Shown here one piece after another: positions 1,622 through 62,477 of a stretch of 64,000 nucleotides of DNA (the first letter of the stretch is position 1; each line of letters starts with the position of its first letter). The stretch comes from Candidatus Multivorans sp. (lineage in GTDB: Bacteria > Acidobacteriota > Thermoanaerobaculia > Multivoradales > Multivoraceae), in contig OZ251997.1 in NCBI GenBank assembly GCA_965247095.1, positions 288,001-352,000 on the forward strand, read 5' to 3'. The translations under genes and the position numbers were made by a program. The notes beneath the pieces were generated by a model. The model made no database searches. It was not told the DNA's origin and was given only the letters and a program-made list of their open reading frames with translations.

Positions 1622-1693
1622 GTGCCATCCGTGCGCCCGCTGACGGGCGCACGGACTGGTTCACGGGTGGCGCGGATCGCGCCACCCGGGTTC
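1622..1693 (+). repeat. Repeat family A copy (68-bp two-hairpin unit plus flanking GTTC)
   Basis: GTGC-CATCCGTGCGCCCG-CTGA-CGGGCGCACGGA-CTGGTTCA-CGGGTGGCGCG-GAT-CGCGCCACCCG-G-GTTC; matches the reverse complement of 33823-33894 and 62370-62441. Confidence 0.9.
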
Positions 1694-1749
1694 GCGCTTG
1701 GTCGGAAGGCAGGGAGGTCGGCGCTGAGGGCTGCTAGGGTCCGCCGGTC

Positions 1750-2733
1750 GTGCGCTGGCTGCACTACTACCTCAGGCTGCTGGCCGCGGCGTCCCTGCTG
1801 CTGATCGCGGCGGGTGGTCTGGTCACCAGCACGGACTCGGGACTGGCCGTTCCCGACTGGCCGAACACCTACGGCTACTTCATGTTCTCGTTCCCGTTCT
1901 CGAAGATGGTCGGCGGCATTTTCTACGAGCACGGCCATCGGCTGATCGCGAGCACCGTCGGTCTGCTGACCATCGGCCTGGTGCTCTGGGCCTGGCGCGC
2001 TGAGCCGCGCCGGTGGGTGCGCCGGATGACCTGGACGGCGCTGGGTGCGGTCGTGGCTCAGGGGCTGCTCGGCGGCGTCACAGTGATCTACCTGCTGCCC
2101 AAGCCGATTTCGATCAGCCATGCCGGATTGGCGCAGCTCTTCTTTGCCCTGGTCGTCGGCCTCGGCGTCTTTACGTCGGCGGGTTGGCGAGACGGCTACG
2201 GGCGTGTCGAGCCCTTGGGTGATCCCGTTCTCGGGCGTCTCGCGGTGGCCGTTCCGACGCTCGTCTACGGCCAGATCCTGCTCGGCGCGACGATGCGTCA
2301 CAACGACGCCGGGCTCGCGATCCCCGACTTCCCGCTCGCTTTCGGCCGGCTTCTGCCGCCGGAGTGGAGTCTCGGCATCGGACTCCATTTCGCGCATCGC
2401 CTGGGCGCCGTCGCGGTGACGGCGGTCGCCGTGGCTCTCATCGCGCGGGTATTCGCTCATCACCGTGGTCGACACGAACTCGTCCGCCCGGCTCTGCTCC
2501 TTGCCGCGGTCCTGCTGGTGCAGATCGGTCTCGGAGCCTGGACCGTGTGGAGCGGCCTGCAGCCCCACATCAATACGTCGCACGTCGCCACCGGCGCCCT
2601 GGTGTGGGTTGTGTCCGTGACCCTGGCTCTGCGCGTCCACCGAGCCTGGTTCAGCGACGGGCAGTCGATCCGGTTGGCCCGTCTCTTACCCGACGCCGCG
2701 GCCGTCGAGGGCCACGAGCGGGCCCGGGCGTGA
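1750..2733 (+). CDS. ctaA: Heme A synthase (COX15/CtaA)
   Basis: GGLVTSTDSGLAVPDWP, FYEHGHRL, HFAHRLGA and SH heme-ligand motifs; multi-TM; adjacent to ctaB. Confidence 0.9.
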   Translation: MRWLHYYLRLLAAASLLLIAAGGLVTSTDSGLAVPDWPNTYGYFMFSFPFSKMVGGIFYEHGHRLIASTVGLLTIGLVLWAWRAEPRRWVRRMTWTALGAVVAQGLLGGVTVIYLLPKPISISHAGLAQLFFALVVGLGVFTSAGWRDGYGRVEPLGDPVLGRLAVAVPTLVYGQILLGATMRHNDAGLAIPDFPLAFGRLLPPEWSLGIGLHFAHRLGAVAVTAVAVALIARVFAHHRGRHELVRPALLLAAVLLVQIGLGAWTVWSGLQPHINTSHVATGALVWVVSVTLALRVHRAWFSDGQSIRLARLLPDAAAVEGHERARA

Positions 2734-3615
2734 CGATTCTGGCCGCCGAAGCAGCCCGTCCGGGTCGCGCCTCTCTGTTGCTGGCGCTGGCAAAGCCGCG
2801 GCTCAATGCACTGGCGGTCGCCACGGTGGCGATCGGTTACTACCTGGGAGCCCAAGAGTTCGACCTGGCTGTGTTCCTTGCTGTCGTTGCGGGCTCCGCG
2901 TTGGTAGCGGGCGGCGGCGCCGCGTTCAATCAGGTCGCGGAGCGCGATCTGGACGCGCTCATGGAGCGCACGCGGTCGCGGCCACTGCCGACGGGGGGGG
3001 TCGCCCGCGGCTGGCCGGCTCTTCGCCACGATTCTGAGCGTGGCGGGTGTGATCGTGCTGGCGCTCGGAGTCAACCTTGTAGCGACGGCGGTCGCGCTGG
3101 CGACCCTGATCAGCTACGCCTGGATCTACACGCCGATGAAGCGGCGCACGCCCTGGGCGGTCCTCGTCGGCGCGGTACCCGGCGCGTTGCCGCCAGTCAT
3201 CGGCTGGGTCGCCGCCCGCGGCGCCCTGACCGTAGAGGCGTGGTTGTTGTTCGGGATCGTCTTCGCGTGGCAGCTCCCGCACTTCCATTCCCTGGCCTGG
3301 CTTTACCGCGACGACTACGCGCGCGCCGGCTTCAAGGTCCTGGCCGCAACCGATCCCGACGGGCGCAGCACGGCCATGCAGTCAATGCTCTGGGCCTTTC
3401 TGCTTGCCGGCCTCACCCTACTCGCTGCCGTCGTCGGCCTGGCCCCTCCCGCCTTTGCAATCGCCGCCGCGACCTTCAGCACCGCCTTCGCCCTGCTCGC
3501 CGCCCGCTTCCTCAACAACCGAACAAACACTCGCGCTCGCACCCTGTTCCTCGGTTCCTTGATCGTGCTGCCCCTGATCTGGACCGCCCTCGTAGCCGGC
3601 CACGCGGCTCTCTGA
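2730..3615 (+). pseudogene. ctaB: Protoheme IX farnesyltransferase (heme O synthase), frameshifted at the G8 tract 2993-3000 (true frameshift or sequencing error)
   Basis: N-half LAKPR...NQVAERDLDALMERTRSRPLPTG in one frame (GTG 2730 overlaps the ctaA stop); C-half YTPMKR..GAVPGALPPVIGW..WQLPHF..DDYARAG in the frame of ORF 3040..3615. Confidence 0.85.
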
Positions 3616-3637
3616 TTTCAGAGACTTGTTTCGCGGA

Positions 3638-4081
3638 CTACCCGTCCGACCTGAGCAGGAGGATGCGGTTGTCGCTGGCGCCTGGAACCGCTGCGATCGG
3701 GATCGAGTCGTCGAAGGTGGCCAGGATGCCGTCGTTTTGCACTGCCAGGGCCAGGAGGTAGACGTCCGTGATCTGGCGGTAGCCTCGAATCGACCCGGCC
3801 GCGAGGTGCTCGCGTTCACGTATCGATAGCGAGTCGGGCCAGAAGGCGTGATCGTCGGTCTGGCAGAAGATCCTCAGGCGCTCCGTTGCGTCGGCCACCG
3901 TGGTCCGGCGCCCGGAATAGCTGGGGTTCGCCACGATCCGAACGAAGCCGTTCTCGGTCAATGGACAGGTTGACCAAGGTCCCCGCGAAGGACTTCCGAA
4001 CCACCGGTGGGCCGTCTCGTAGTGGATGTGCTCCGGGTCGAAGAGAGCTATCAGAACATTGACGTCGAGCAACGCACTCAA
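3638..4081 (-). CDS. vapC: PIN-domain toxin (VapC family)
   Basis: LLDVNVLIAL, TCPLTENGFVRI, QITDVYLLALA, LATFD. Confidence 0.9.
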   Translation of the reverse strand: MSALLDVNVLIALFDPEHIHYETAHRWFGSPSRGPWSTCPLTENGFVRIVANPSYSGRRTTVADATERLRIFCQTDDHAFWPDSLSIREREHLAAGSIRGYRQITDVYLLALAVQNDGILATFDDSIPIAAVPGASDNRILLLRSDG

Positions 4082-4308
4082 GGTTCGTCGTCTCGCAGAG
4101 CGTTCACCGCGGCGAGCGAGACCGGCCGAGCGCCGTCACGCGAGGGCAGTAAGGGAACGCCGTTTCGTTCTTCGACTCGGTGGGACCGGGGCGCCAGCGC
4201 CTTCCTGGCGAGCTCCGAGACGACTCGACCCACAGGTACACGGCGCTGCGCGGCGAGCTCCTTTGCGGCCCAGAGGACATCTTCGTCGAGGTTCAGTGTG
4301 GTGCGCAT
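4078..4308 (-). CDS. vapB: RHH/CopG-type antitoxin (VapB)
   Basis: MRTTLNLDEDVL...VSELARKAL; stop overlaps the toxin start; the longer listed ORF runs through repeats. Confidence 0.88.
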   Translation of the reverse strand: MRTTLNLDEDVLWAAKELAAQRRVPVGRVVSELARKALAPRSHRVEERNGVPLLPSRDGARPVSLAAVNALRDDEP

Positions 4309-4343
4309 AGGCTGAGCATCGCGCATCATGCATCTGATGTCAA
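4309..4343 (-). promoter_or_regulatory. Sigma70-type promoter, probably leaderless, with CATC/GATG operator-like repeats
   Basis: On the minus strand TTGACA (4338-4343), 17 nt, GATGCT (4315-4320), 6 nt, ATG. Confidence 0.6.
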
Positions 4344-4364
4344 CCGTGCGTTCTACGCCGCCCC

Positions 4365-4506
4365 GAACCCGTTTTGGGAGGAGACGAGCAAGACGCGACC
4401 CAGTCCGTGCGCCCGTCATCGGGCGCCCGGATGGCACCCGTTTTGGGAGGAGACGAGCAAGACGCGAACCAGTCCGTGCGCCCGTCAGCGGGCGCACGGA
4501 TGGAAC
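4365..4506 (-). repeat. Repeat family A tandem dimer (2 x 69 bp) inserted in the 3' end of a CoA transferase gene
   Basis: GAAC[4369-4437 ending GCAC][4438-4506 ending GAAC]; near-identical units; supplies the TGA at 4485. Confidence 0.92.
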
Positions 4507-5618
4507 TCCGTCCGGATCGCGGCGCCGTGCTGGTCGAGTTCGGGCACGGGAGGTAGGCGTCGCCCCGGTTCGTTCGGGGCGGCAGCGGGAGCCACCATGT
4601 CGATCTCGGTGCCGTCGGGGAGCGGTTGCCTGACTCGGCGGAGCTGTGGATGCCGCGACAGAGCGGCGACGTCGTTCAGGAAGCCGTAGGCGATGCGGGC
4701 GCGATCGAGGATCGTGCGAATCGACTGCCGGTCGTGGCGGATGAACACCTCGTCGATCGCGGCTTCGACGGCGGCGCGGCCTTGCGCTCGGTCCACGTTC
4801 CGCGGGTAGGCCTCGGCGAGTTCCGGTTGTTCGAGCACTTCATTGCATAGGCGCGCGAACTCGCGGTCGTTCTGGACTCCGATCAGCACGGAGTGGCCGT
4901 CGCCGAGCTGGAACACGCCGTAGGGCACGATCGTCGGATGGCCGAGGCCGACCCGCGGCCAGTCGAGACCATGCTGTTCGAAACGCAGCAGGGGCGCCGC
5001 CATCCAGTCCGCCATCGTGTGGAAGAGGCTGACCTCGACGTTGCGGCCGGCGCCGGTGCGACCGCGCTCGATCAGGGCTTCGAGGATGGCGGAGTACGCG
5101 TAGATGCCGGTGGCGAAGTCGCAGATGGAGACCCCGACGCGGCCGGGCTCTGCCGGCGAACCGGTGATCGACGCGACGCCGCTCTCCGCCTGGACGAGCA
5201 GGTCGTAGGCTCGCATCGACCGGTAGGGGCCGTCCTCGCCGTAGCCCGAGATGTCGCAGGTGACGAGCCGCGGATGGCGCCCGCGGAGCTCCTTCGACCC
5301 GAAGCCGGCCCGCGCGGCTGCGCCCGGCGCGAGGTTCTGGATGAACACATCGGCGCGCTCGACGATCCGTTCGAGCAGGGCCCGATCCTCGTCGCCCTTG
5401 ATGTCGAGAACGATCGACTCCTTGCCGCGGTTCAGCCAGGCGAAGTAGGCCGAGACGCCCCCCGTGCCGTCGTAGCCGCGGGCGAAGTCCCCGCCGTCAC
5501 GCTCCACCTTGATCACCCGGGCGCCTGCGTCCGCCAGGCGGCAGGTCGCCAGCGGCGCCGCGACCGCCTGCTCGATGGCAACCACGAGCAGGCCCTCGAG
5601 AGGACGGTGAGCGGTCAT
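4485..5618 (-). CDS. CoA transferase, family III (CaiB/BaiF)
   Basis: PLEGLLVVAIEQAVAAP, LADAGARVIKVER, NRGKES, QNLAPGA, ISGYGEDGPY. Confidence 0.93.
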   Translation of the reverse strand: MTAHRPLEGLLVVAIEQAVAAPLATCRLADAGARVIKVERDGGDFARGYDGTGGVSAYFAWLNRGKESIVLDIKGDEDRALLERIVERADVFIQNLAPGAAARAGFGSKELRGRHPRLVTCDISGYGEDGPYRSMRAYDLLVQAESGVASITGSPAEPGRVGVSICDFATGIYAYSAILEALIERGRTGAGRNVEVSLFHTMADWMAAPLLRFEQHGLDWPRVGLGHPTIVPYGVFQLGDGHSVLIGVQNDREFARLCNEVLEQPELAEAYPRNVDRAQGRAAVEAAIDEVFIRHDRQSIRTILDRARIAYGFLNDVAALSRHPQLRRVRQPLPDGTEIDMVAPAAAPNEPGRRLPPVPELDQHGAAIRTEFHPCAR

Positions 5619-6295
5619 CGCCAGGCGAAGACCGGCTGCTCGTAGTGAGCGACGCGGACATCATTGCCGCGGAGGACCACCTCGAGCATCTGGTAGACGA
5701 TCGCCGCCGTCGGCGCGTGGACGAGACCGCCCCGGATCGGCATCGAGAGCACCGGGTTCTCGCTCTCGGGAATCTCCCGCAGCACCGGCACGTCGGGCCG
5801 GTCGAGGTCGATCAGGGGGATGCGGTAGGCGCGGTAGACCTCGTCCGGGTTCGGCTGCAGCTCGCGGTAGTCGTCGCACCAGAACACGACCGGCGTGATG
5901 ACGAAGCCGGAGCGGGTGCCGAAGTCGTCGAGCCGGCCCAGGACGGCGCCGGGTTCGAGGTCCAGGCCGACCTCTTCGTGGAGTTCGCGCAGGGCCGCCT
6001 GCTCGGGGGTCTCCGCCTCGTCGATGCGGCCGCCCGGAAGTGCCCACTGACCGCGGTGGCGGCGGAGCCTCAGGGAGCGCCGAGTGAGCAGGAAGCAACC
6101 GCGGCCGCCCTTGTCCGGCAGCAGGGTCACCGCAACGGCGGCATGCGCGTTGGCGGACACGGCGCCGGTGTGCCCGGAGGCTTCCGCGGCCCGCGCCGCG
6201 GCCGCTTCAGGATCGAGCTTTCGCCGCTCGAAGCGCTCCAGGTTCCGCTCAGCGTGGGCGTGGAGTTCCGGACCGTGCCGTGCGGGGAAGCTCAC
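5615..6295 (-). CDS. Nudix hydrolase, CoA pyrophosphatase type
   Basis: LTRRS..LRRHRGQWALPGG followed by the Nudix box GRIDEAETPEQAALRELHEEVGL. Confidence 0.9.
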   Translation of the reverse strand: MSFPARHGPELHAHAERNLERFERRKLDPEAAAARAAEASGHTGAVSANAHAAVAVTLLPDKGGRGCFLLTRRSLRLRRHRGQWALPGGRIDEAETPEQAALRELHEEVGLDLEPGAVLGRLDDFGTRSGFVITPVVFWCDDYRELQPNPDEVYRAYRIPLIDLDRPDVPVLREIPESENPVLSMPIRGGLVHAPTAAIVYQMLEVVLRGNDVRVAHYEQPVFAWR

Positions 6296-6317
6296 GTAGC
6301 CGCGGCTGCCAGACCGT

Positions 6318-7364
6318 TCACGGCGCCTCCTCGCGGATCAGCTCCACGACCCGGCCGAGGGTGTCGAGCCGTTCCGTCACCGTGGCGCCGGCCGGGCTCA
6401 GCCGCAGCGTGGTCACTCCGGCGTCCCGGTAGGCGCGGATGCGGCTGCGAATGCGGGCCTCGTCGCCGATCAGGGTGTTGCCGAGCACCATCTCGTCGGG
6501 AACGCGCGCCGCGGCTTCCTCCCGCTTGCGGGCGATCCACAGCGCCTGCACTTCGCGGGCTGCCTCGACGAAACCGGCGCGGCGGTAGGCGTCGTTGTAG
6601 AAGTTGGTCTGCGCCGAACCCATCGCCCCCAGGGTGAAGGCCATGGACGGCTTGCGGCGGGCCGCCATCCGCTCCAGGTCGTCGCCGAACTCGACCTCGC
6701 CGCCGACCTGGATGTCGATGTCGTCGAGGCTGCGGCCGGCACGCTCGGCCCCCGCGCGCATCGAGGGGAAGAAGGCCTCCGCGTGTTCGGGGATGAAGGA
6801 GGCGCCGAGCCAGCCGTCTGCGACTTCGCCGGTGTACTCGAGCGACTTCGGCCCGAGGGTCGCCAGGTAGATCGGCAGCCTGGGCCGCGGCGGCTGCGAC
6901 ATGCGGATCGCCTTGCCCTCACCGCCGGGGCGGGGCAGGGTGTAGTGCTCGCCCTCGTAGGCGATCTTCTCGCCGGAGAGTGCGATCTTCAGGATGTCGA
7001 TGTATTCCCGCAGGCGGCCCAGGGGCTTTGCGAAGGCTGTGCCGTGCAACCCCTCGACCACCTGGGGACCGCTGACGCCGAGGCCGAGGACGAACCGGTC
7101 CTTCGAGATCGAGGCCAGCGACATCGCGGTCATCGCGGTCATCGAGGGGGCCCGCGCCGAGATCTGCATGATGCCGGTGCCAAGCCGGATGCGCTCCGTG
7201 CGCGCGGCGAGGTAGGCGAGCGGGGTCACGGCGTCCGTGCCCCAGGCCTCGGCCGACCAGACATCGTCCACACCGAGGCGTTCCGCCTCGACGACGTACT
7301 TCGTCAGGGCGTCCCAGTTCGTTCCGGAGGCGTACGCGCTCCCGATGCCGATCGCTGTCCGCAT
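6318..7364 (-). CDS. LLM-class flavin (probably F420)-dependent oxidoreductase
   Basis: WSAEAWGTDAVTPLAYLAA, LGLGVSGPQVVEGLHG, GEVADGW. Confidence 0.9.
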   Translation of the reverse strand: MRTAIGIGSAYASGTNWDALTKYVVEAERLGVDDVWSAEAWGTDAVTPLAYLAARTERIRLGTGIMQISARAPSMTAMTAMSLASISKDRFVLGLGVSGPQVVEGLHGTAFAKPLGRLREYIDILKIALSGEKIAYEGEHYTLPRPGGEGKAIRMSQPPRPRLPIYLATLGPKSLEYTGEVADGWLGASFIPEHAEAFFPSMRAGAERAGRSLDDIDIQVGGEVEFGDDLERMAARRKPSMAFTLGAMGSAQTNFYNDAYRRAGFVEAAREVQALWIARKREEAAARVPDEMVLGNTLIGDEARIRSRIRAYRDAGVTTLRLSPAGATVTERLDTLGRVVELIREEAP

Positions 7365-7392
7365 CCTTCGTTGCTCCTTGTGCTCAGGTGGT

Positions 7393-7974: not shown

Positions 7975-8132
7975 GGATTTCTCCTCGCCGGCGGCGTGGG
8001 CGATGCCGGTCGCCGTCGGCAGCGTTACGTTGCTCTCTTGATAGCGGGCGGTTCTACTGAACGACTGTCGCGCGGACGGAGTAGTTCTTGCGGATTGTCG
8101 GGACGGTGGCTGTTCCCGATCTTACCGAGGCG

Positions 8133-8188
8133 CTAGCAGCGTGCGCCGCAGGAAGAATCGGCGCACCCCATGTTCTGCCGCGCACGCT
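8133..8188 (+). mobile_element. Repeat family B (MITE-like) copy; right CTAG absent
   Basis: CTAG-CAGCGTGCGCCGCAGGAAGAATCGGCGCACCCCATGTTCTGCCGCGCACGCT; near-identical to 10888-10948. Confidence 0.8.
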
Positions 8189-8248
8189 TGCATGGAACAA
8201 GCCATGTTTCCTGTGCGTCAGCGCGGCGCGGACGCCGCGACTCGACTC

Positions 8249-9189
<941 letters not shown>

Positions 9190-9193
<4 letters not shown>

Positions 9194-10654: not shown

Positions 10655-10891
10655 ATGAAGCGTGGACGACGGCTGAGCAACGCGATAGCGACCCGGAAGT
10701 CGGTGATCACTGCGCCGCGCAGCTTCTCGAAGGTGCAGCGGAACGAGCCGTGCCCGTGCGGCAGCGGCCAGAAGTACAAGGACTGCCACTTCGCCGAGGG
10801 CGAGGCCTTCCTGCGCAAGCTGGGACGCCAGCGCTACAAGGCGCAGCAGAAGGCGGACGGTACGCCCTGGTACGTGCGCTGGCTGACCTAG
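10655..10891 (+). CDS. Small SEC-C metal-binding motif protein
   Basis: [20 protein letters not shown]. Confidence 0.85.
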
Positions 10892-10948
10892 CAGCGTGCG
10901 CGGCAGGAAGAATCGGCGTACCCCATGTTCTGCGGCGCACGCTCCTAG
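10888..10948 (+). mobile_element. Repeat family B (MITE-like), 61 bp including both CTAG
   Basis: CTAG...CTAG boundaries with imperfect terminal inverted repeats CAGCGTGCGCGGCAG / CTGCGGCGCACGCTC. Confidence 0.85.
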
Positions 10949-20916: not shown

Positions 20917-21027
20917 CCTGCGCGACAGAACGACACGAAGTGAGTTCTGTGGCGCGGGGTTCTGGTGAGGTGGGGGATGGGGCCAAACTCCGAGCCGGCG
21001 AGGCGTTTGGCGGCGCTTGCCTGCCGG
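20917..21027 (+). repeat. Repeat family D copy (empty site, no A insertion)
   Basis: TTCTGTGGCGCGGGGTTCTGGTGAGGTGGGGGATGGGGCCAAAC...GTTTGGCGGCGCT aligns with the reverse complement of 62291-62373. Confidence 0.8.
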
Positions 21028-33817: not shown

Positions 33818-33931
33818 CCTGGGAACCCGGGTGGCGCGACCCGCGCCACCCGCGAACCGCTCCGAGCGCCCGTCATCGGGCGCGCGGATGGCACCCGGGC
33901 GTCTCGCCCGCATCCGGCGCGCAGCGCCGGC
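33818..33931. repeat. Composite: family C repeat interrupted by a family A unit (33827-33894)
   Basis: CCTGGGAAC[68 bp A ending GCAC]CCGGGCGTCTCGCCCGCATCCGG. Confidence 0.88.
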
Positions 33932-36035: not shown

Positions 36036-36503
36036 ATGAAGCATCTTCCACTGATTGCTCGCATCCTGCTGGGGCTGATCTTCGCAGTCTTTGGCGTCAT
36101 CGGCCTGTTCGAGCTGGGGCCGGAGCCGGAGATGGGAGAGGAGGCTGCGGCCTTCATGGGAGCGATCATGGATACGGGCTACCTGTGGCCGGTGATCAAG
36201 GTGGCCGAGATCGTCTGCGGCGTGCTGCTGATCCTCGGCCTGTTCGTGCCGCTCGCTCTCGTGGTGCTGGCGCCGATCGTCCTGAACATCCTGCTCTTCC
36301 ACGTTTTCCTGGCGCCCGAGAGCGTGGTCATCGGCGTCGTGGCGGTGGTGCTCGGCCTCTACGTCGCTCACCAGCACCGGTCGAGCTTGAGCGCCGTTCT
36401 GCAGCGCAAGGCCGAAGCCCGGAACCCGCCCCGGCGGGTGCTACGAATCCGTGCCGACCGCGATCAGGTGACGGCGCGCCCGGAAGTAGATGACGCCGTC
36501 TGA
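36036..36503 (+). CDS. DoxX-like membrane protein
   Basis: ARILLGLIF, TGYLWPVIKVAEIVCG, LAPIVLNILLFH; tail overlaps the convergent gene. Confidence 0.85.
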   Translation: MKHLPLIARILLGLIFAVFGVIGLFELGPEPEMGEEAAAFMGAIMDTGYLWPVIKVAEIVCGVLLILGLFVPLALVVLAPIVLNILLFHVFLAPESVVIGVVAVVLGLYVAHQHRSSLSAVLQRKAEARNPPRRVLRIRADRDQVTARPEVDDAV

Positions 36504-37793
36504 GATGGCGGGCGTCGCCATCAGGGTTTCGCCGAGTTCGTTGACGGCGATCTCGTTCAGTGCCGCGCCGGGTTCGATGACGTACACGTCGCCGTCCTCG
36601 CTGCTGAAGTAGATGCGGTCGCCGGCGGCGACCGCCGAGGCGCTGAAGCCGGAGGCGCCGCGTCCCAGGCGTTTCTGGGTCAGGCGTTCGCCGGTCCTCC
36701 AGTCGACGACGGTGACGACCCCGTTGTCGTAGCAGAAGTAGGCAAGATCGCCGACGACGATCGGCGTCTGCATGTAGTTCCCCAACCGTTCGTGGAACCA
36801 GGCCATTGCGTCGTGGTCGGGATCGAGCTTGCCCCTGGCGTCCGGATCGATGGCGTAGATCGGCTTCAGCCGGCCATGGGCGTTCGTGATCAGGATCGGA
36901 CCTTCGCCGGCGCGGATCGGCGTGGGCACCGGGATGTCGCCGCCGCCTTCGAGCCGCCACAGTTCCTCGCCGGTGTCGAAGTCGTAGCCGCCGATATGGC
37001 GATAGCCGTTGACGACGACCTGCCGGCCGCCATCGCCGCGCGGGAAGACGGCGGGCGTGCTCCAGGTGGCGACCTCTTCGCGCGGTGTCCGCCAGATGTC
37101 CTCGCCGGTCGTGGCATCCAGGACCGTGACAAAGGAGTCGCTCAGGATGTCGACCTGGATGATCACCCGGCCGTCGTGGACGATCGGCGAACTGGCGAAT
37201 CCCCACTCGTAGGTGGGGAAGTCGTAGGGACCGGAGTCGAGCACGCCGAACTGCCGGTTCCAGAGAGGGTTGCCGTCCAGGTCGTAGGCGTGGAGCCCCT
37301 CCGAACCGAAGAACGCCACCAGGACGCGGCCGTCGGTCGCCGGCGTCGAGTTCGTATGCGACGCCTTCATGTGGCGCTTGATTGCGGGCGTGCCGTGGAA
37401 GGCGGTCTGTTGCCATAGCAGCTCGCCGCTCCGTTTGTCGAAGGCGAGCACCTGGAACCGCTGAGGCGGCTCGCCCGCAACCGGCGTACCGTCGCCGTAG
37501 AGACCGACCTTGAGCGACGCCTCGCCGCGTTCGGGCACCGCCGAGGTCAGAAACAGACGGTCGCCCCAGATCACCGGGCTCGAATGGCCAAGGCCAGGAA
37601 CCGGAACGCGGAAGAGGACGTTCTCGCCGGTCTCCACGTTCCAGGTCGCCGGCGGCGATCCGGTGCCCCTGCCGTCCGCGCCGTTGCCGCGGAAGGAAGG
37701 CCAGTTGTCCGAGGCGGCGAGGGGCAGGGCCGCCGCGGCAAGCGCGAATGTCGCGAGGACCGAGGAAACCCGTCTCCTGGAGAAGGCCGTCAC
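36441..37793 (-). CDS. PQQ-binding-like beta-propeller protein (paralog 1)
   Basis: Signal peptide, NWPSFRG, GHSSPVIWGD, NSTPATDG, FASSP, ATPAISDG. Confidence 0.9.
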   Translation of the reverse strand: MTAFSRRRVSSVLATFALAAAALPLAASDNWPSFRGNGADGRGTGSPPATWNVETGENVLFRVPVPGLGHSSPVIWGDRLFLTSAVPERGEASLKVGLYGDGTPVAGEPPQRFQVLAFDKRSGELLWQQTAFHGTPAIKRHMKASHTNSTPATDGRVLVAFFGSEGLHAYDLDGNPLWNRQFGVLDSGPYDFPTYEWGFASSPIVHDGRVIIQVDILSDSFVTVLDATTGEDIWRTPREEVATWSTPAVFPRGDGGRQVVVNGYRHIGGYDFDTGEELWRLEGGGDIPVPTPIRAGEGPILITNAHGRLKPIYAIDPDARGKLDPDHDAMAWFHERLGNYMQTPIVVGDLAYFCYDNGVVTVVDWRTGERLTQKRLGRGASGFSASAVAAGDRIYFSSEDGDVYVIEPGAALNEIAVNELGETLMATPAISDGVIYFRARRHLIAVGTDS

Positions 37794-37799
37794 GGCGAG

Positions 37800-39158
37800 C
37801 TACGACCCGGCGCCGACGGCGATCAGGTGGCGCCTTGCCCGGAAGTAGATGACGCCGTCCGAGATCGCCGGCGTCGCCATCAGGGTCTCGCCCAGTTCGT
37901 TGACTGCGAGTTCGTTCAACTCGGGGCCCGGCTCGATGACGTAGACGTCGCCGTCCTCGCTATTGAAGTAGATGTGACCGCCGGCGGCGACCGGCGAGGC
38001 GGTGAAGCCGGAAGCGCCGCGGCCCAGGCGTTTCTGAGCGACGCGCTCGCCGCTCTTCCAGTCGAGCACGGTGACCACGCCGTTGTCGAAGCCGAAGTAG
38101 GCGAGGTCGCCCACCACGATCGGCGTCTGCATGTAGTTGCCGAGCCGGCCATGGAACCAAGCCATTGCTTCGTGGTCGGGGTCGATTCCGCCCGCCGCGT
38201 CCAGATTAATGGCGTAGATGGGCCGCATGCGCCCGTGGGCGCTGGTGATCAGGATCGGGCCGTCGCCGGCGCGAATCGGCGTCGGCACCGGGATGTCGCC
38301 GCCTCCCGCGAGCCGCCACAGTTCCTCACCGGTGTCGAAGTCGTAGCCGCCGATGTGCTTGTAGCCGTTGACGACGATCTGACGACCGCCGTCGCGCCGC
38401 GGGAACACGGCGGGTGTGCTCCAGGTCGGAATCTCGTCGCGCCCGGTACGCCAGATGTCCTCGCCAGTGGCGGCGTCGAGAACCGCAAGGAAGGAGTCGC
38501 CCTGCACGTCGACCTGGATAATCAGGCGGCCGTCATGGATCAGCGGCGAGCTGGCGAAGCCCCACTGCGCCGTCTTGACCATGAAGTAGCCTGAGTCGAG
38601 CAGCCCGAACTGGCGGTTCCAGAGCGGGTTGCCGTCCAGGTCGTAGGCGTGCAGGCCTTCGGACCCGAAGAAGACGACCAGCACCTCCCCGTCGGTCGCC
38701 GGCGTCGAGTTCGTGTGGGATGCCTTGGTGTGGCGCTTGATGGCCGGCGTGCCCTCAAAGGCCGTCTGCTGCCAGAGCAGTTCGCCGCTCCGTTTGTCGT
38801 ACGCCAGCAGCTTGTAGCGCTGCGGCGGTTCGCCCACGACGGGCGCGATGTCGCCGTAGAGGCCGACCTTGAGCGATGCCTCCTCGCCTTCGGGCACCGA
38901 GGAGGTCAGGAACAGACGGTCGCCCCAGATCACCGGACTTGAGTGCCCGAGGCCGGGCACGGCGACCCGGAAGAGGATGTTCTCACCGGTCTCGACGTTC
39001 CAGGTCGCCGGCGGCGTGCCGGTGCCGTTCCCGTCCGCCGCGTTGCCACGGAAGGATGGCCAGTTGTCGGATGCGGCTGCGAGCGGTGACGTCGCCGCAG
39101 CCAGGACGGCCACGACGAGGAGGCGTTTGAGCGTCGGGATCTGTATTGATCTACTCAT
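37800..39158 (-). CDS. PQQ-binding-like beta-propeller protein (paralog 2)
   Basis: Same motifs; collinear close paralog of 36441..37793. Confidence 0.9.
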   Translation of the reverse strand: MSRSIQIPTLKRLLVVAVLAAATSPLAAASDNWPSFRGNAADGNGTGTPPATWNVETGENILFRVAVPGLGHSSPVIWGDRLFLTSSVPEGEEASLKVGLYGDIAPVVGEPPQRYKLLAYDKRSGELLWQQTAFEGTPAIKRHTKASHTNSTPATDGEVLVVFFGSEGLHAYDLDGNPLWNRQFGLLDSGYFMVKTAQWGFASSPLIHDGRLIIQVDVQGDSFLAVLDAATGEDIWRTGRDEIPTWSTPAVFPRRDGGRQIVVNGYKHIGGYDFDTGEELWRLAGGGDIPVPTPIRAGDGPILITSAHGRMRPIYAINLDAAGGIDPDHEAMAWFHGRLGNYMQTPIVVGDLAYFGFDNGVVTVLDWKSGERVAQKRLGRGASGFTASPVAAGGHIYFNSEDGDVYVIEPGPELNELAVNELGETLMATPAISDGVIYFRARRHLIAVGAGS

Positions 39159-39169
39159 GGGTGAAGTAT

Positions 39170-39235
39170 GTGCCATCCGTGCGCCCGATGACGTGCGCAC
39201 GGCGTGGGTCGCAGGCGCCGCTGAGGTCCGGGTTG
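39170..39235 (+). repeat. Repeat family A degenerate copy
   Basis: GTGCCATCCGTGCGCCCGATGACGTGCGCACGG followed by an eroded second half ending CCGGGTTG. Confidence 0.7.
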
Positions 39236-53446: not shown

Positions 53447-53599
53447 CGGAACTTGGCCCCTTCCGGCTCGGAAGGGCCGTTATCCTATGCGGCCGGTGAT
53501 CCACCAGCTCGCCTCGAAGCACAGACAGGCGCGCTTGCCCGCGTCGACGCGTTCGCAAGATCGCTCCCTCCCACGTCAAACCGGAGAAGCCCAGAGCCA

Positions 53600-54625
53600 A
53601 TGAAAGTCATTCGCACTCCCGACGAGCGCTTCGTCGACCTTCCCGACTTCGACTACGAGCCCCACTACACCGTCGTACCGAGGGGCGACGGTGAGGGCGA
53701 GGGTCTCCGGATCCACCACGTGGAGGCGGGGCCGGAGGAAGGTCCGCTGGTGCTTCTGATGCACGGTCAGCCGACCTGGAGCTTCCTCTACCGGCGGATG
53801 ATCCCGGTGCTCGTGGAGCGGGGCCTGCGGGTGATGGCGCCGGACCTGGTCGGCTATGGCCGGTCGGACAAGCCGACGGAGCGCGAGGACTACACCTACC
53901 AGCGGCAGGTGGACTGGCTGAGCGCCTGGTTGCGCAGTAACGGCGTCGTCCACGCGACCCTGGTCGGCCAGGACTGGGGAGGCCTGATCGGGCTGCGGAT
54001 GGCGGCGCTCGATCCGGCCCGCTTCGACCGCATCGTCGCCGCGAACACCGGCTTGCCGCTGCCGCTTGAGATGTCCGGGGAGACGGTGCGAAAGATCGAG
54101 AAGTTCCGGGCCGAGGCGCCGACACCGACGATGATGGAGATGCAGCAGCAGATCTCGCAGATGGGGACGGATCCGGCGGTCAAGTTCGCGTACTGGCAGA
54201 AGTGGACCTGGGAGACCGAGGACATTCCGGTCGGGCTCATGCTCGCGGCCAGCGTCGACGGCGTGTCGCTCACGCCTGAGGAGATGGCGGCCTACGACGC
54301 ACCGTTCCCCGATCCGTCCTACAAGGCGGGGATCCGGGCCATGCCGAGCCGGGTGCCGATGTTGCCGAACGACCCTTCCGTGCCGGCTCAGATGGAAGCC
54401 TGGCGCGTGTTCTCGGAGTGGACGAAGCCGTTTCTCTGCGCCTTCGCGGACGACGATCCGGTCACGGGCGGCGCAAAGCGGCCCTTCAAAGCGAGGGTTC
54501 CCGGCGCGCAGGGGCAGCCCCACAAGACGATCGAGGGCGGCGGCCATTTCCTGCAGGAGGGCCGGGGCCGGGAACTGGCCGCGATCGTCGCCGACTTCAT
54601 CGAGTCGACGCCGGTGGGCGGCTAA
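53600..54625 (+). CDS. Haloalkane dehalogenase
   Basis: RTPDERF..LPDFDY, HGQPTWSFLYR, GQDWGGLIG, AYDAPFPD, GHFLQE. Confidence 0.92.
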   Translation: MKVIRTPDERFVDLPDFDYEPHYTVVPRGDGEGEGLRIHHVEAGPEEGPLVLLMHGQPTWSFLYRRMIPVLVERGLRVMAPDLVGYGRSDKPTEREDYTYQRQVDWLSAWLRSNGVVHATLVGQDWGGLIGLRMAALDPARFDRIVAANTGLPLPLEMSGETVRKIEKFRAEAPTPTMMEMQQQISQMGTDPAVKFAYWQKWTWETEDIPVGLMLAASVDGVSLTPEEMAAYDAPFPDPSYKAGIRAMPSRVPMLPNDPSVPAQMEAWRVFSEWTKPFLCAFADDDPVTGGAKRPFKARVPGAQGQPHKTIEGGGHFLQEGRGRELAAIVADFIESTPVGG

Positions 54626-54682
54626 GAGCGTGCGCCGCAGAACATGGGGCACGCCGATTCTTCCTACCGCGCACGCTGCTAG
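54622..54682 (-). mobile_element. Repeat family B (MITE-like) copy
   Basis: CTAA-GAGCGTGCGCCGCAGAACATGGGG...GCGCACGCTG-CTAG, 61 bp. Confidence 0.85.
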
Positions 54683-55755: not shown

Positions 55756-55762
55756 CTGCCTC

Positions 55763-56233: not shown

Positions 56234-56252
56234 CCGCGGTACGATGCCGGCG

Positions 56253-56858: not shown

Positions 56859-56868
56859 GGACGGCGCC

Positions 56869-57720
56869 ATGGAAACCGCATCGAGCGGACGCCGGGTCGA
56901 TCTGCCGGGGCGGGGTGCGACGTGGGTGCATGAGGTCGAGGGGCCGCCCGGGGCACCGGTCCTGCTGCTGCTTCACGGCCTGGCGGCCACCGCGCTCCTG
57001 AACTGGGCTACGAGCTTCGCCACTCTCGGACGCGGTTTCCGGGTCCTCGCGCTCGACCAGCGCGGGCACGGCCACGGCATCCGTCGGATCGGCGCCTTCA
57101 AGCTCGAGGACTGCGCCGACGATGCGGCGGCGTTGGTCGACCGGCTGGGCGTGGAGCGGGTGATCCCGGTCGGCTACTCAATGGGCGGAGCGGTGGCGCA
57201 GTTGTTCTGGCGCCGTCACCCGGACCGGACCGCGGGTCTCGTGCTCTGCGCGACCAGTTCGCGCTTCGGCGGTCCGCGGGCCCAGCGGGCGGCCTCCACG
57301 CTCGGGCCGTTGCTGTCGCTGGCGGCGCGCGCGGCCCCCCGGTCGCTGTGGGAACGCATGGGCGAGCGCATGCTCGCGAACGTCGAGGATCCAGCCCTGC
57401 AGCAGACATTGAAGGAGCAGATGGGACCGACGGATCCGGTCTCGGTGATCGAGGCTAGCGCCGCGTTGGCCCGGTTCGACTCGAGCCCCTGGCTCGGCGA
57501 GATCGACGTGCCGACCGGGGTTGTGCTGACCGAGCAGGACGGGCACATTCCGCCCCAGTACCAGGCGCTGATGGCGGAGCAGGTTCCCGGCGCCTCGGTC
57601 CACCGGGTGGATGCCGATCACTACGCCTGCGTGGCGCGACCGGACCTCTTCGTTCCGACTCTGTTCGCCGCCTGCCGATCCGTCGCGCTACGCGGCGCGC
57701 CGGTACGCAGCGTTTCCTGA
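56869..57720 (+). CDS. Alpha/beta hydrolase
   Basis: LLHG, DQRGHG, GYSMGG, D...H triad spacing. Confidence 0.9.
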   Translation: METASSGRRVDLPGRGATWVHEVEGPPGAPVLLLLHGLAATALLNWATSFATLGRGFRVLALDQRGHGHGIRRIGAFKLEDCADDAAALVDRLGVERVIPVGYSMGGAVAQLFWRRHPDRTAGLVLCATSSRFGGPRAQRAASTLGPLLSLAARAAPRSLWERMGERMLANVEDPALQQTLKEQMGPTDPVSVIEASAALARFDSSPWLGEIDVPTGVVLTEQDGHIPPQYQALMAEQVPGASVHRVDADHYACVARPDLFVPTLFAACRSVALRGAPVRSVS

Positions 57721-57738
57721 CGCCGCGTCAACGGGTCG

Positions 57739-57799
57739 CTAGGAGCGTGCGCGGCTGAACATGGGGTGCGCCGACTCTTCCTGCGGCGCACGCTGCTAG
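57739..57799 (-). mobile_element. Repeat family B (MITE-like) copy
   Basis: CTAG-GAGCGTGCGCGGCTGAACATGGGG...GCGCACGCTG-CTAG, 61 bp. Confidence 0.85.
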
Positions 57800-60700
57800 C
57801 GCCGCGGTCGCTTTCGGAGGCGCCTGCGTCGCCGTCGCCGCGGCTTGCTGACGTGGGCGGCCTGGGTGGCGGGCTGCCGGCCCAGGTTCACGAACTGGTC
57901 CCACACGGTGCGGCTCCACGCCGTCAGCTTCTCGACTGTCCGGTCCACCAGGTCGTAGATCACCGGCACGACGAGCAGGGTGAGCAGCGTGGAGGTGGCC
58001 ATGCCGCCCATCGTCAGCACCGCGATCGCGGCGCGGGCCTCGGAACCGGAGGCGGTGGAGAACGCGACCGGCAGCAGGCCGCAGATCAGCGAGAGGGCGG
58101 TCATCAGCACCGGACGCAGGCGCGCCGGCCCGGCCTCGAGAATCGCCTCCCTGCGGGTACGGCCGTCCTGGCGGAGGCGGTTGATGTAGTCGATCAGGAG
58201 GATGCCGTTCTTCATCACCAGCCCCATCAGCACCAGGAGACCGATGCCGCTCAACATGTCGAGCGGCTTGCCCGAGAGCTTGAGGGCCAGGAAGGCGCCG
58301 ATGAAGGAGAGCGGCGCGGACATCATGATCGTGATCGGGTGGACCAGGGAGTTGAAGAGGGACGCCAGGACCATGTAGATCGCGGCGATCGCGAGCACGA
58401 AGGCGAAGAACAGCGAGACGCTGGTCTCCTGCAAGACCACCGTCATGCCGCTGGGCACGAGTTGGTTCGGAGCCTCGAGCCCCACCATCTGGCTGTAGTC
58501 CTCGACCCGGGCGGCAAGTTCGGACTGCGCCACGCCCTCGGCTGCGTTGGCCGCGATCGTGATCTGGCGGGAGCGATTCTGGCGGCTGATCTGGACCGCG
58601 CCTTCGCCGACCCGGATGTCGGCGACGTTGGTGATCGGGGTCAGTTGACCGGAGGCGGTGCGGATCTGGATCAGGTCCAGCTTCTCCGGGGTGTCCCGGT
58701 ACTCGGGCAGGACCTGGACGCGGACGTCGTAGCGTTCCCCGCCCTCCTCGAAAGTGCCCAGTTCCTCTCCCGCGAGCAGGGTGCGGATCGTGCGGCCGAT
58801 GACCGTTGCCTGCACCCCGAGGTCGGCGGCGCGGTCGCGGTCGACGTCGATCTTGATTTCCGGCTTGCCGGTCTCCCAACTCGTTCCGACGTCGACGAAA
58901 GCGGGATCGGAGCGCATCAGCGCCACCAGCCGGTCCGAGTAGAGCTCGAGATCCTCCATGAGCGGACCGCGCAGACTGTAGGTCACGGCGCGCGAGCCCA
59001 ACTGGTCGTCGCTTCCCGCGATCCAGTTGATCGGCGACACGGCGACCTCCTCGGCCTCGGGGATCTGCGTCAGCAGCCGCTCGCGGACCCGGTCCATGAT
59101 CGCCGCCTGGCCGAGATCGCGCTCTCGCTTGTTCGTCAACTGGACGTAGATCGAAGCTCGATGGGGCTCCTGCCGGCTGCCGCCGCCGATCGTCGCGAAA
59201 CGGTTCCGGACCTCGGGGTCGGCCGCGAGCACTTCCTCGGCGCGGCGCGCCGCCTGAGCCGTGACGGCAAGCGGGGTGCCGATCGGCATCTTCACGTCGA
59301 CGTTGAACTCGCTCCGGTCCTCGGTCACGAACAGATCGAACGGGAGCGTGGTGGCGACCAGGACTCCGCCGGCCATTGCCGCCACCGCGACGATCAGGGT
59401 GAGCAGCTTATGGCCGAGGGCGCGCCGTAGAACCTCCTGGTAGAAGCGGTCGAGGCCGTCGAGGGCCGAGCCCAGGGCACGGCTCACCGGGTCGTTTCCC
59501 TGACGCGCGGTCAGCACGCGGCTGCCGAGCATGGGCGTCAAGGTCAGGGCGAAGAGGCTCGACACGCAGACAGCGATCGCCATCACCATGCCGAACTCGT
59601 AGAACCACTGGCCGACCGTGCCGGACATGAAGGCGATCGGCACGAAGACCGCGCACTGTGCCAGGGTGGTCGAGATCACCGCCAGCGTCACTTGGCTGGC
59701 GCCCTCCTCGGCTGCCTCTCTTCGGCCCAGCCCCTGCTCGATCCGGCGGTAGATCACCTCCAGGACCACGATCGCGTCGTCGATCACGACGCCGATCGAC
59801 AGCGACAACGCCATCAGCGTCATCACGTTCAGGGTGAAGTCGGCGACGTAGAAGAAGGTAAACGACGCGATCACGGAGGAGGGGATCGCGAGCGCCGAGA
59901 TCAGGGTCGACCTGGGGTTGCGCAGGAACAGGAGCACCACGGCGACCACCAGGACGCCGCCCCAGAGCATGTTCGAGAACACGGAGTAGATCGACTCCTC
60001 GATGAACACCGCCATGTCGCGGGTGATCAGGACCTCCATGCCGGGCGGCAGGTTCGGGCGCAGGGCCTCGACTTCGGTCCGAACCGCTTCGGCGACGGCG
60101 ACCGTGTTCGCCCCGCTCCGCCGCCGCACCTCGAGCGAGACCCCGCGCTGGCCGTTGAAACGGGCCACGGACCGCTCCTCGGCCAGGCCGTCCTCGATCT
60201 TCGCCACGTCCCGCAGGTAGACCAGCCGTCCGCCGCGTTCGGCGGCGATCAGGGCGCCGAAGTCCTCGACCCGCTTGACCCGGCCGGAGGTGGTCACCGT
60301 CCACTCCCGCTCGCGCCCCTCGACGCGGCCGCCGGCGGTCTCGGCGTTCTCCAGCAGCAGGGTGGAGCGGACATCGTCGATCGAGAGCCCGTAGCCGCCG
60401 AGCCGGACCGGATCGAGCCAGATCCGCACCTCGCGGCGGCGCGAGCCGATGATCTCGATGCTGCCGACGCCTGGCAGGCGTTCCAGTCGGTCCTTGACCA
60501 TGTTCTCGGCCAGTTCGGACAGTTCGCGGACCGAGACCGGACCACCGAGCATGATCGACAGGATCGGCGTCGCGTCCGGGTCGATCTGGGTGACGACCGG
60601 ATCTTCGATGTCGAGGGGGAGCTCCGCGCGGACGGGGGCCATCTTCTCGCGCACGTGCTGCGCCTTGACGTCGATGTCGTAGCCGGTTTCGAACTCGACG

Positions 60701-60978
60701 AAGATCTGGGAGATCCCCTCCGAGGAGACCGAACTCAGTTCGCGGATGCCTTCGATCGTGTTGATCTGCTCTTCGAGGACATCGGTGACTTCGGTCTCGA
60801 CGGTCTCCGGTGAGGCCCCTTCGAGGATTGTCGTGACGGTGACGAAGGGGAACTCGACATCCGGGTTCAGGTCGACATTGAGCCGGCTCAGCGACACCAA
60901 GCCCAGCACGACCAGCGCCACGTTGAGCATCAAGGCGAAGACGGGCCTGCGGATCGAGATGAGCGGCAGGTTCAGCAT
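57796..60978 (-). CDS. RND efflux permease (AcrB/AcrD/AcrF family)
   Basis: SIRRPVFA, GASPETVE, GVVIDDAIVV, GLVMKNGILL, RLRPVLMT. Confidence 0.95.
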   Translation of the reverse strand: MLNLPLISIRRPVFALMLNVALVVLGLVSLSRLNVDLNPDVEFPFVTVTTILEGASPETVETEVTDVLEEQINTIEGIRELSSVSSEGISQIFVEFETGYDIDVKAQHVREKMAPVRAELPLDIEDPVVTQIDPDATPILSIMLGGPVSVRELSELAENMVKDRLERLPGVGSIEIIGSRRREVRIWLDPVRLGGYGLSIDDVRSTLLLENAETAGGRVEGREREWTVTTSGRVKRVEDFGALIAAERGGRLVYLRDVAKIEDGLAEERSVARFNGQRGVSLEVRRRSGANTVAVAEAVRTEVEALRPNLPPGMEVLITRDMAVFIEESIYSVFSNMLWGGVLVVAVVLLFLRNPRSTLISALAIPSSVIASFTFFYVADFTLNVMTLMALSLSIGVVIDDAIVVLEVIYRRIEQGLGRREAAEEGASQVTLAVISTTLAQCAVFVPIAFMSGTVGQWFYEFGMVMAIAVCVSSLFALTLTPMLGSRVLTARQGNDPVSRALGSALDGLDRFYQEVLRRALGHKLLTLIVAVAAMAGGVLVATTLPFDLFVTEDRSEFNVDVKMPIGTPLAVTAQAARRAEEVLAADPEVRNRFATIGGGSRQEPHRASIYVQLTNKRERDLGQAAIMDRVRERLLTQIPEAEEVAVSPINWIAGSDDQLGSRAVTYSLRGPLMEDLELYSDRLVALMRSDPAFVDVGTSWETGKPEIKIDVDRDRAADLGVQATVIGRTIRTLLAGEELGTFEEGGERYDVRVQVLPEYRDTPEKLDLIQIRTASGQLTPITNVADIRVGEGAVQISRQNRSRQITIAANAAEGVAQSELAARVEDYSQMVGLEAPNQLVPSGMTVVLQETSVSLFFAFVLAIAAIYMVLASLFNSLVHPITIMMSAPLSFIGAFLALKLSGKPLDMLSGIGLLVLMGLVMKNGILLIDYINRLRQDGRTRREAILEAGPARLRPVLMTALSLICGLLPVAFSTASGSEARAAIAVLTMGGMATSTLLTLLVVPVIYDLVDRTVEKLTAWSRTVWDQFVNLGRQPATQAAHVSKPRRRRRRRLRKRPRR

Positions 60979-60985
60979 GGCCGCC

Positions 60986-62185
60986 TCATCGTGGCTGCGG
61001 TGCGTCCGGGAGCGCGGCAGAGGGCGCCGTGTCCCCGCCGGCCGCCAGCGGCGGCGGCTCGGCGGCTTGAACCGGCGCACCGTCGGCGAGCCGGTCGATC
61101 ACCGGGCCGACGATCACCGCGTCGCCGGCTTCGACGCCGGTCCTGATCTCGACCAGGCGCGAGCCGGTGGCGCCGACCGTGACCTCGATCTGCCGGGCGC
61201 GGCCGTCCACGGTCGTGAACAGGTAGGCGCGGCCGTCGCGGTTGAGCAGGGCGGCCCGTTCGACAATCACCGCGCCGCCGCGGGTCCGCGGCCGGATCTC
61301 GGCCCGGACGAAGGCGCCCGCCTTGGCGCCCGACAGGTTGCCGGGCACTGGCGCCCGCACCCGGTAGGTCCGTGTCTCGGGGTCGATTCTGGCGTTGACC
61401 GACGCGATCGTGGACTGGATCGGCTCGGCGGCGCCCTCGACGATCAGGAGAGCCGGGTCGCCGACTCTCACCGGCGACGCCGCAGCCGCCGGCACGTCGA
61501 GTTCGGCGGAAAAACCTGTCTGTTCCTGGATCGTGACGACGACGGAGCCGGGGCCGACGATCGCGCCCTCGTGGAGCTGCCTTTCGACCACATGGGCGGT
61601 GTACGGGCTGATCACCTCCGTGCGGGTGAGGTCCTGCTCGGCGCTCTGGACCGCGGCCTGCTCCTGCTGGACACGGGCCTTGGCCACTGCGAGCAGGGTC
61701 AGTTGCTGATCGAGCCGTTGCGGCGGCGCGACCTGCTGTTCGGCCAGTCGGCGCACCCGTTCCAGTTCCTGGAGGGCCTGCGCGGCCTCGGCCTTCGCCA
61801 GCGCGAGGCCGGCGCGCGCCCGTTGCAGGTTGGTTCTGAACGGCCCCGGGTCGAGTTGGAAGACGACATCGCCGGCTGCCACTTCATCGCCGACATCGAA
61901 GTGGACGACCGAGAGCCTTCCCGCCAGCTCCGGTCCGAGTTCGGTCAGGCGCGGGGCGACAACGGAGCCGGAGGCGGTGACCAAGGCGTCGACCTGACCG
62001 CGCCGCACCCGGGTGGTCGGGGCAAGCACGCCGCTCCTGAAGATGCCCGTGCCGGTGGCCAGACTCGCGTCGGCGCTCGTGGCGCTGTCGGGCACGTCGC
62101 CGCGGCAGCCGATGCTCACCGCCACGGCAAACGTCGCTACCAGCACGATGGTTCGCTGTATGTGTTCAGGCCCCGATCGCGTCAT
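60986..62185 (-). CDS. RND periplasmic adaptor (membrane fusion protein)
   Basis: VGDEVAAGDVVFQLD, helical hairpin, EVISPYTAHV, IDPETRT; start approximate. Confidence 0.9.
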   Translation of the reverse strand: MTRSGPEHIQRTIVLVATFAVAVSIGCRGDVPDSATSADASLATGTGIFRSGVLAPTTRVRRGQVDALVTASGSVVAPRLTELGPELAGRLSVVHFDVGDEVAAGDVVFQLDPGPFRTNLQRARAGLALAKAEAAQALQELERVRRLAEQQVAPPQRLDQQLTLLAVAKARVQQEQAAVQSAEQDLTRTEVISPYTAHVVERQLHEGAIVGPGSVVVTIQEQTGFSAELDVPAAAASPVRVGDPALLIVEGAAEPIQSTIASVNARIDPETRTYRVRAPVPGNLSGAKAGAFVRAEIRPRTRGGAVIVERAALLNRDGRAYLFTTVDGRARQIEVTVGATGSRLVEIRTGVEAGDAVIVGPVIDRLADGAPVQAAEPPPLAAGGDTAPSAALPDAPQPR

Positions 62186-62290
62186 GGTCCGACTCCTGCC
62201 AAGTCGTGCGGAGTCTTGGCCGTGTCCCGGCGCCCGGGGACGGCGTCGCGTCCACGGCGTTCGAGGTGCTACGTAGCCTTCACGGTCGTA

Positions 62291-62477
62291 CCGGTTGGTA
62301 GCGCCGCCAAACCCGTCGCAGACTCCGTGTTTGGCCCCAGCCCCCACCTCACCAGGACCTTGCGCCGCAGAACCCGGGTGGCGCGATACGCGCCACCCGC
62401 GAACCAGTCCGAGCGGCCGTCATCGGGCGCACGGATGGAACTCACTCCGTTGCGTTTCTGCGGCGCAAGGTCCTGGT
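62291..62477 (-). repeat. Composite: family D repeat carrying a family A unit (62374-62441) in the loop of a 22-bp perfect inverted repeat
   Basis: ACCAGGACCTTGCGCCGCAGAA (62351-62372) / TTCTGCGGCGCAAGGTCCTGGT (62456-62477); GAAC at 62370 and 62438. Confidence 0.88.

Follow-up and report, generated by a model that had tools for sequence, protein, structure and literature searches.

A small two-hairpin mobile repeat of Candidatus Multivorans and its possible mobilisation in trans by an HUH transposase

A 64,000-nucleotide stretch of Candidatus Multivorans sp. (positions 288,001 to 352,000 of contig OZ251997.1, assembly GCA_965247095.1; hereafter the window) contains copies of a 68-69 nt repeat built from two hairpins, the family A unit (hereafter the unit), which is real and mobile. 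The unit has no gene of its own and was present or absent to the base at orthologous sites of related genomes, and it therefore moves. Tentatively, and at somewhat less than even confidence, we favour the reading that it is moved as folded single-stranded DNA by an HUH transposase acting in trans, most likely a REP-associated tyrosine transposase (RAYT; REP, repetitive extragenic palindrome). This reading was preferred because of the precise empty and filled pairs, the fixed ends, the compensated stems, the tandem arrays, and a RAYT being the sole HUH match in the 4.6 Mb genome that holds the window (G000; compared genomes carry G numbers likewise).

Sequence, fold and copy number

The genome-wide search proposed by the first-pass annotation of the window, conducted with a profile built from the window copies, returned 176 non-overlapping matches in G000 at E<=1 and none in the reversed genome. 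Among these were 153 full-length copies of 63-69 nt each, with ends fixed to the base. The layout is 5'-AC-C-hairpin 1 (11 bp)-YGAA-hairpin 2 (3 bp, one bulged base, 12 bp and a TCA(T/G) loop)-(C/A)-3', such that the element runs from AC-C to TGG(C/A) over 68-69 nt, and its target is (G/C)A^AC, the caret marking the crossover. The terminal inverted repeats and target duplication of classical DDE miniature inverted-repeat transposable elements were both absent from the 153 G000 copies, in keeping with the earlier claim that terminal inverted repeats are lacking. Tandem multimers, also claimed from the window, were seen more widely, as five exact head-to-tail arrays in G000 and as 11 identical 69-nt units in G027 at a place where G000 has one copy. 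This 11-mer (L370:2220-2980) is in frame at the start of a long open reading frame (ORF).

Two-hairpin DNA folds were obtained for copies 1622 and 62370, with z-scores of -8.8 and -7.3. Over 29 diverse copies, in a test that takes no account of relatedness, 94.7% of stem cells were paired and two-sided changes occurred at 12 of 26 pairs; none of 500 shuffles matched this pairing and these changes, and slid registers paired only 27-47%. The basal 3 bp were also compensated (CCA/TGG, ACA/TGT and GCA/TGC). The variant first hairpin CGTTTTG...CAAGACG at 4367/4436, which had been described as keeping its pairing, depends on G-T pairs for it and does not appear in the minimum-energy DNA fold. Rfam returned no match in the window at the gathering score, placing the unit in no catalogued RNA family.

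Presence and absence at orthologous sites

All six copies claimed for the window are present, five intact and one degenerate, at sites that were correctly given but with coordinates 2 bases off. The first, of 68 nt on the minus strand (1624..1691, target GA^AC), lies within a small repeat of family F, with a CoA-transferase gene on one side and a COX15/CtaA gene on the other. A tandem pair of 69-nt units on the plus strand follows, comprising the variant copy at 4367..4435 and a second at 4436..4504 that gives a CoA-transferase gene (4485-5618, minus strand) its last codons and stop. The 68-nt copy at 33825..33892 (plus strand) is set in the GGGAAC foot of a REP of family C behind an M16 peptidase gene, and the rest of this host REP (AC and the REP hairpin, plus strand) occupies 33893..33911. 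The degenerate copy, 62 nt on the minus strand (39172..39233, target CA^AC), has a decayed first hairpin (fold z -1.3), and the last copy, 68 nt on the plus strand (62372..62439), is a recent insertion in a palindrome of family D.

Exact empty orthologues, the evidence that the first-pass annotation had called for, were found at three of these sites. Site 62372 was empty to the base in G027 and G024 and again in run X5, where contigs at locus depth pass over the site with exactly 68 bases missing and are otherwise near-identical to the window (differences at 4 of 829 and 2 of 809 letters). Site 1624 was empty in G024 (L349) and filled in G035. At site 4367, 17 of the 28 loci listed had no unit, and G036 and G016 had a single unit versus two in the window; the CoA-transferase, which ends EFHPCAR* with the unit, ends EFGAA* or similar when the site is empty, and the EFGAA* of one such orthologue is the gene end that had been reconstructed. 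For site 33825 the expected empty family C repeat rests on paralogues, since G027 lacks the entire block of REP and unit; in the flank comparison covering this site, the flanks could be compared for no more than 12 of 153 copies and 10 of 12 copies. No orthologous site for copy 39172 was found in the compared genomes. A comparison of candidate empty sites gave 31 rows, about half of them tandem or paralogue matches and several diverged, and the clean pairs alone were retained. Presence also varies for the family D palindrome (window 62300-62480 and 20944-21017), which G027 and G024 have and which is absent from the same site in G026, G065, G016, G036 and G035.

Crossover and target

The empty and filled pairs speak against the first-pass view that G(A/C)AC brackets the unit. 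In E-type repeats (family E), empty GA^AG corresponds to filled GA[AC...GGC]AG. An empty GA^TC target on the minus strand at window 54171..54174, in an ORF (53576-54625 region), reads GATC in G000 and G035, GGTC in G036 and G016, and GA[AC...TGTC]TC, filled in frame, in G024, G026 and G027, and this site fixes the crossover; in another pair the empty site is GAAC and the filled right end is GCAC. These alignments put the crossover in mid-tetranucleotide (GA^AC), with the AC borne by the element, and recombination takes place within the tetranucleotide, which does not bracket the unit. The 4-mers on the left and on the right mostly differ over the 153 copies (GAAC/GCAC in 63, GAAC/GAAC in 34), hence the lack of target duplication.

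Across 77 independent flank clusters, which uphold the short conserved target that had been claimed, the element starts with A in 73, C in 77 and C in 77, with softer flanks on the left (G in 56 or C in 15, then A in 65) and on the right (A in 66, C in 57). The targets seen were GA^AC, GA^AG, GA^GC, GA^TC and CA^AT, with conservation spanning only four bases, on both sides of the cut. The cluster count at the deciding position alone was not significant (11 versus 4, p=0.12), and the register is therefore carried by the orthologues at GA^TC and the right ends at GA^GC. The bases borne by the element keep to the left side, which is expected from a single nick position. A junction at GAA^C was dropped on the empty and filled pairs at GA^TC and GA^AG sites. 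An integron attC site has a paired AAC/GTT box, and the attC reading was rejected given that the unit contains none. The unit may also bear a likeness to relaxase nic sites, the hairpin ribozyme and Helentrons.

This register bears on the IS91-family model of the first-pass annotation. A miniature IS91-family (Y2 rolling-circle) element would share with the unit the lack of duplication, the tandems, and the occurrence of GAAC/GCAC at each end of a single strand, which miniature IS801 fragments also show (PMC3189936). However, IS91-family elements have the entire target tetranucleotide next to oriIS and carry the left GAAC as their own sequence (PMC13181058, PMC3189936), whereas the crossover of the unit falls inside the tetranucleotide and not at its edge, its left ends are fixed, such that there are no one-ended events, and its length is 68 nt compared with 229-679 nt for miniature IS801 and other IS91-family derivatives (PMC3189936, PMC13181058). 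No intact Y2 transposase was found in 42 genomes of the genus. PF04986 and PF14319 had no match in G000, where the positive controls for these profiles were silent too, and the sole PF04986 match, in one of the 42 genomes, was a 153-aa fragment without the unit's ends. The model was therefore not borne out, and we consider it very improbable.

A RAYT as candidate mobiliser

The only HUH match and only Y1 gene of G000 is a RAYT gene of 214 aa (L001:1249-2290; G000:C1 about 2898000-2899050), which scored 79.8 bits against the NF047646 cut-off of 80 (atlas 0.96). It is flanked by inverted arrays of C REPs (foot GGGAAC), the same family that hosts the copy at 33825, and two of these flanking REPs carry the unit. 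Genome-wide, the unit lies mostly within REPs and other palindromic repeats; 75 of the 246 C REPs of G000 are filled with it, and 82 of the 153 copies are in C context by a flank rule that misassigns a few. The genus has two RAYT groups, one with C REPs and one with E REPs (foot GGGTGC; L016-L040). In Escherichia coli, TnpA-REP cuts its iREP at C^T (PMC3333891), and the cut sites of TnpA-REP follow the foot sequence (PMC8266576); the site of the unit in the C REP is the complement of the foot, the place matching the E. coli iREP cut. Neither foot, GGGAAC or GGGTGC, is of the GTAG/GTGG type described in the parts of the papers covered. At the RAYT locus of G016 and G065, both the number of REPs and which of them are filled with the unit differ.

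We infer that an HUH enzyme acting in trans nicks and re-joins the single-stranded DNA, with a 68-nt circle as intermediate. Two nicks, one on the 5' side of the element-borne AC and the other behind the final base, would release a single-stranded 68-nt circle with the junction GG(C/A)^ACCC and a predicted rod fold. The circle would then re-join at a GA^AC target, and arrays could arise via re-insertion at the unit's own end or by rolling amplification. Of the first-pass proposal of a non-autonomous element mobilised in trans by an HUH enzyme, the non-autonomous and mobile character stands and HUH mobilisation remains the best inference, but the IS91 model falls away. The RAYT is the leading but unproven candidate mobiliser.

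Several observations weigh against a RAYT. Y1 matches were about as frequent in element-rich genomes (8 of 13) as in element-poor ones (17 of 29; p=1.0), in a test where kin are not independent and the element pattern undercounts one subfamily with a GTCAC linker; late RAYT loss can hide a REP-RAYT correlation (PMC3333891). The genomes G063, G025, G064, G034 and G012 hold 46-112 unit matches and only 2-5 C REPs, and G063 and G025 are element-rich without any Y1 match. The unit alone never flanks a RAYT gene among the 28 loci listed, occurring there only nested in C and E REPs, and it lies on the foot strand in C REPs and on the opposite strand in E REPs. Copies outside C REPs were no closer to REPs than control sites were, 4 of 71 lying within 400 nt compared with 5.6% and 3.3%, and copies outside REPs were divided 38 to 33 between the replication strands, without bias. 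The T^T cut sites that would be predicted are not on the strand of the GAA feet but on the other one, with a foot register chosen post hoc. No circle was demonstrated, as the contig joints in eight runs that go back 68 bases are explained by tandems as well as by circles. The RAYT alternative raised in the first-pass annotation is possible, but it failed the co-occurrence and proximity tests.

The unit resembles the REP, BIME and REPIN systems of RAYTs in being a high-copy hairpin repeat, mostly intergenic, with tandems, in a genome with one RAYT, and inside RAYT-flanking REPs (PMC3333891, PMC8266576, PMC6006769, PMC3116915). It differs from them in that it is not itself the RAYT-bracketing REP, its hairpins stand head-to-tail and not as an inverted doublet, its ends are base-exact, it has no GTAG/GTGG foot, and its abundance is independent of RAYT.

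Search for a parent element or another mover

A possible explanation for the lack of RAYT tracking is that the unit is a remnant resembling the palindrome-associated transposable elements (PATEs), in which the two ends of an HUH transposon, of the IS200/IS605 type or of an uncatalogued one, have become fused, its helper being scarce, lost or missed by the profiles applied; we regard this as plausible, though unlikely. The PATEs of Haloquadratum are derived from IS605, without inverted ends or duplication, with palindromes near their ends and with lengths down to 52 bp (PMC3119063). The unit fits this description, being tiny and gene-less, with near-end palindromes but no inverted ends or duplication, strain-specific insertions, precise empty sites, and two different hairpins in fixed orientation. 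Unlike for PATEs, however, no IS605-type parent with its ends was found, and its two hairpins make up the whole of it. Its target is conserved on both sides of the cut, in contrast to the IS200/IS605 target, a 4-5-mer wholly 5' of the cut with a guide at the hairpin foot (PMC6006769), and a guide-target comparison of low power gave no covariation above z 3.2 between positions of the element and those of its flanks. There was no IS200 TnpA over the cut-off and no TnpB in G000, and the TnpB found in one of the 42 genomes was without the unit's ends.

A longer, gene-carrying version was also not recovered from partial copies in G000, a census of insertion sequences (ISs), one-hairpin patterns, 103 public loci or a viral scan. 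The census of multi-copy ISs in G000 contained none with the unit's ends. Hairpin 2 without hairpin 1 was found in none of 42 genomes and on no metagenome contig, and hairpin 1 without its usual continuation in one of 42, as a truncation, using strict patterns that diverged ends would escape. When the hairpin-2 motif was searched without this exclusion, nearly all of its 103 public matches had hairpin 1 upstream. One copy in G005 is split by about 180 bp, which resembles a secondary insertion. Two further pieces, a fragment of hairpin 2 beside xerD and half a copy close to a broken integrase, were regarded as neighbours by chance.

The IS110 family provides another precedent, in that its members target REPs, leave only a 2-nt core and carry passengers, one of which, ssr9 of ISPpu9, forms its own minicircles and tandems (PMC8450116, PMC12288879). 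The unit is likewise small, gene-less, tandem, REP-associated and without inverted ends, and IS110 genes were found in 23 of the 42 genomes of the genus, where several of them have E REP feet as their insertion sites or ride another miniature element. However, ssr9 has 41- and 14-nt end boxes in common with its parent, whereas none of about eight IS110 types delimited here has the unit's ends, in a comparison that covered part of the genus types and in which one pair gave no alignment. The targets of the unit share no fixed dinucleotide core, with conservation limited to the four bases, and G034 and G036 are element-rich yet have no PF02371 match. A passenger module of an IS110-family recombinase is accordingly a distinctly improbable origin. 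At least five IS110/IS1111 types of the genus insert at one same E REP foot position (L045-L072, L295-L314).

It is also conceivable, if improbable, that no known transposase family supplies the mover and that the role falls, for example, to a host recombinase that works on folded single-stranded DNA or to an RNA-level route, with the folds serving that machinery. In favour of this stand the recent strain-level movement without a tracking transposase and one hairpin-1 variant that retains GNRA-type loops (GAAA, GAGA) together with G-T pairs. There was no positive evidence for such a mover, however. G000 has only XerD-like and broken integrase genes and a broken reverse transcriptase, and three genus genomes gave no match to the unit, which would need another explanation if a universal host gene were responsible. 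In summary of these comparisons, the unit works like a PATE and lives like a REP passenger, and it fails a defining test of each family. The RAYT reading is retained as the favoured one on the evidence given above.

Host repeats and genes

Variants of the unit are tied to their host repeats. The bulged base is C in 70 of 85 classifiable C-REP contexts and G in 118 of 133 others, the GTCAC-linker subfamily occurs mostly in E-REP loops (35 rows, four of them chance matches), and 25 copies belong to one CTAG-flanked composite. These ties reflect either the copying of entire filled repeats or target preferences of the subfamilies, and the empty C orthologues are consistent with insertion as well as with precise excision. 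Hitch-hiking probably contributes part of the copy number, when a unit-filled REP or CTAG-flanked miniature element is copied. The stronger view that the unit has no movement of its own, spreading only inside REPs and miniature elements with loss by deletion between 4-nt near-repeats, could draw on these ties, but is contradicted by copies at unique sites and in frame within genes that have empty orthologues, by the 77 independent flank clusters, and by right ends unlike the empty site, which cannot come from repeat deletion alone; it appears highly implausible.

A CTAG-flanked inverted-repeat miniature element is present in the window at 8133-8188, 10888-10943, 54616-54682 and 57733-57799, and relatives of it elsewhere hold a C REP with the unit inside, forming a three-level nest. 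A further miniature repeat, ending in CTAG (family H; window 8187-8200) occurs in arrays at about 35 places in G000 and twice brackets an IS110-family gene (L003, L004), like a composite transposon of miniature elements.

Copies within predicted genes had lengths divisible by three in 20 of 22 cases, compared with 23 of 116 outside genes, based on a crude gene model. The unit thus edits proteins, both through in-frame copies and through the rewritten end of the CoA-transferase.

Distribution

Matches to the 68-nt query were found in 33 of 36 genus relatives, the remaining three having none, and outside the genus there was one weak match among 24 other genomes of the order. The covariance model matched 18 of 20 genus relatives and none of 130 other genomes of the class. 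Among the 80 records listed for the hairpin-2 motif, all were labelled Ca. Multivorans, Thermoanaerobaculia, Acidobacteria or Vicinamibacteraceae, and no viral contig in the viral scan matched the unit. No description of the unit was found in the literature searched, which excluded most subscription papers and all supplements; the parts covered of PMC6006769, PMC3733652 and PMC3116915 describe no such unit. Pending identification of its enzyme, the unit counts as a small mobile repeat that is specific to this lineage and broadly familiar in kind.

Neighbouring features

Other features were observed in the window and the wider genomes. Two tandem PQQ-type beta-propeller genes, 82-84% alike and 1359 bases apart, lie at 36441-39200. 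A small gene pair at 3638-4302 resembles, by eye, a PIN-type toxin-antitoxin module, and includes a 74-aa ORF without a Pfam match; this pair is 99% identical in G035 and G036, compared with 91-96% for the adjoining DNA. At L234:78-2298, a broken reverse transcriptase gene adjoins a formylglycine-enzyme-like ORF, with its 3' end repeated, an arrangement that resembles a decayed diversity-generating retroelement. The cumulative GC skew of G000 turns near 1.11 and 2.51 Mb, giving very unequal replichores that suggest a large inversion or an assembly issue.

Implications

A more far-reaching interpretation is that the unit represents a minimal, rod-folding, single-stranded 68-nt circle with a cut rule of its own (GA^AC), whose recombinase belongs to none of the IS91, IS200/IS605, IS110 and cognate-REP systems, and that it is a parasite of REPs still active within strains of an uncultured genus. 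We hold this to be possible but on balance unlikely; if it were true, the unit would serve as bait for a new single-strand transposase. How REP-type repeats spread is still an open question, because REP ends are ragged and their integration is unmapped. With its base-exact ends, four-base target, strain-level empty sites and covarying stems, the unit offers a ready substrate on which the RAYT question can be addressed.

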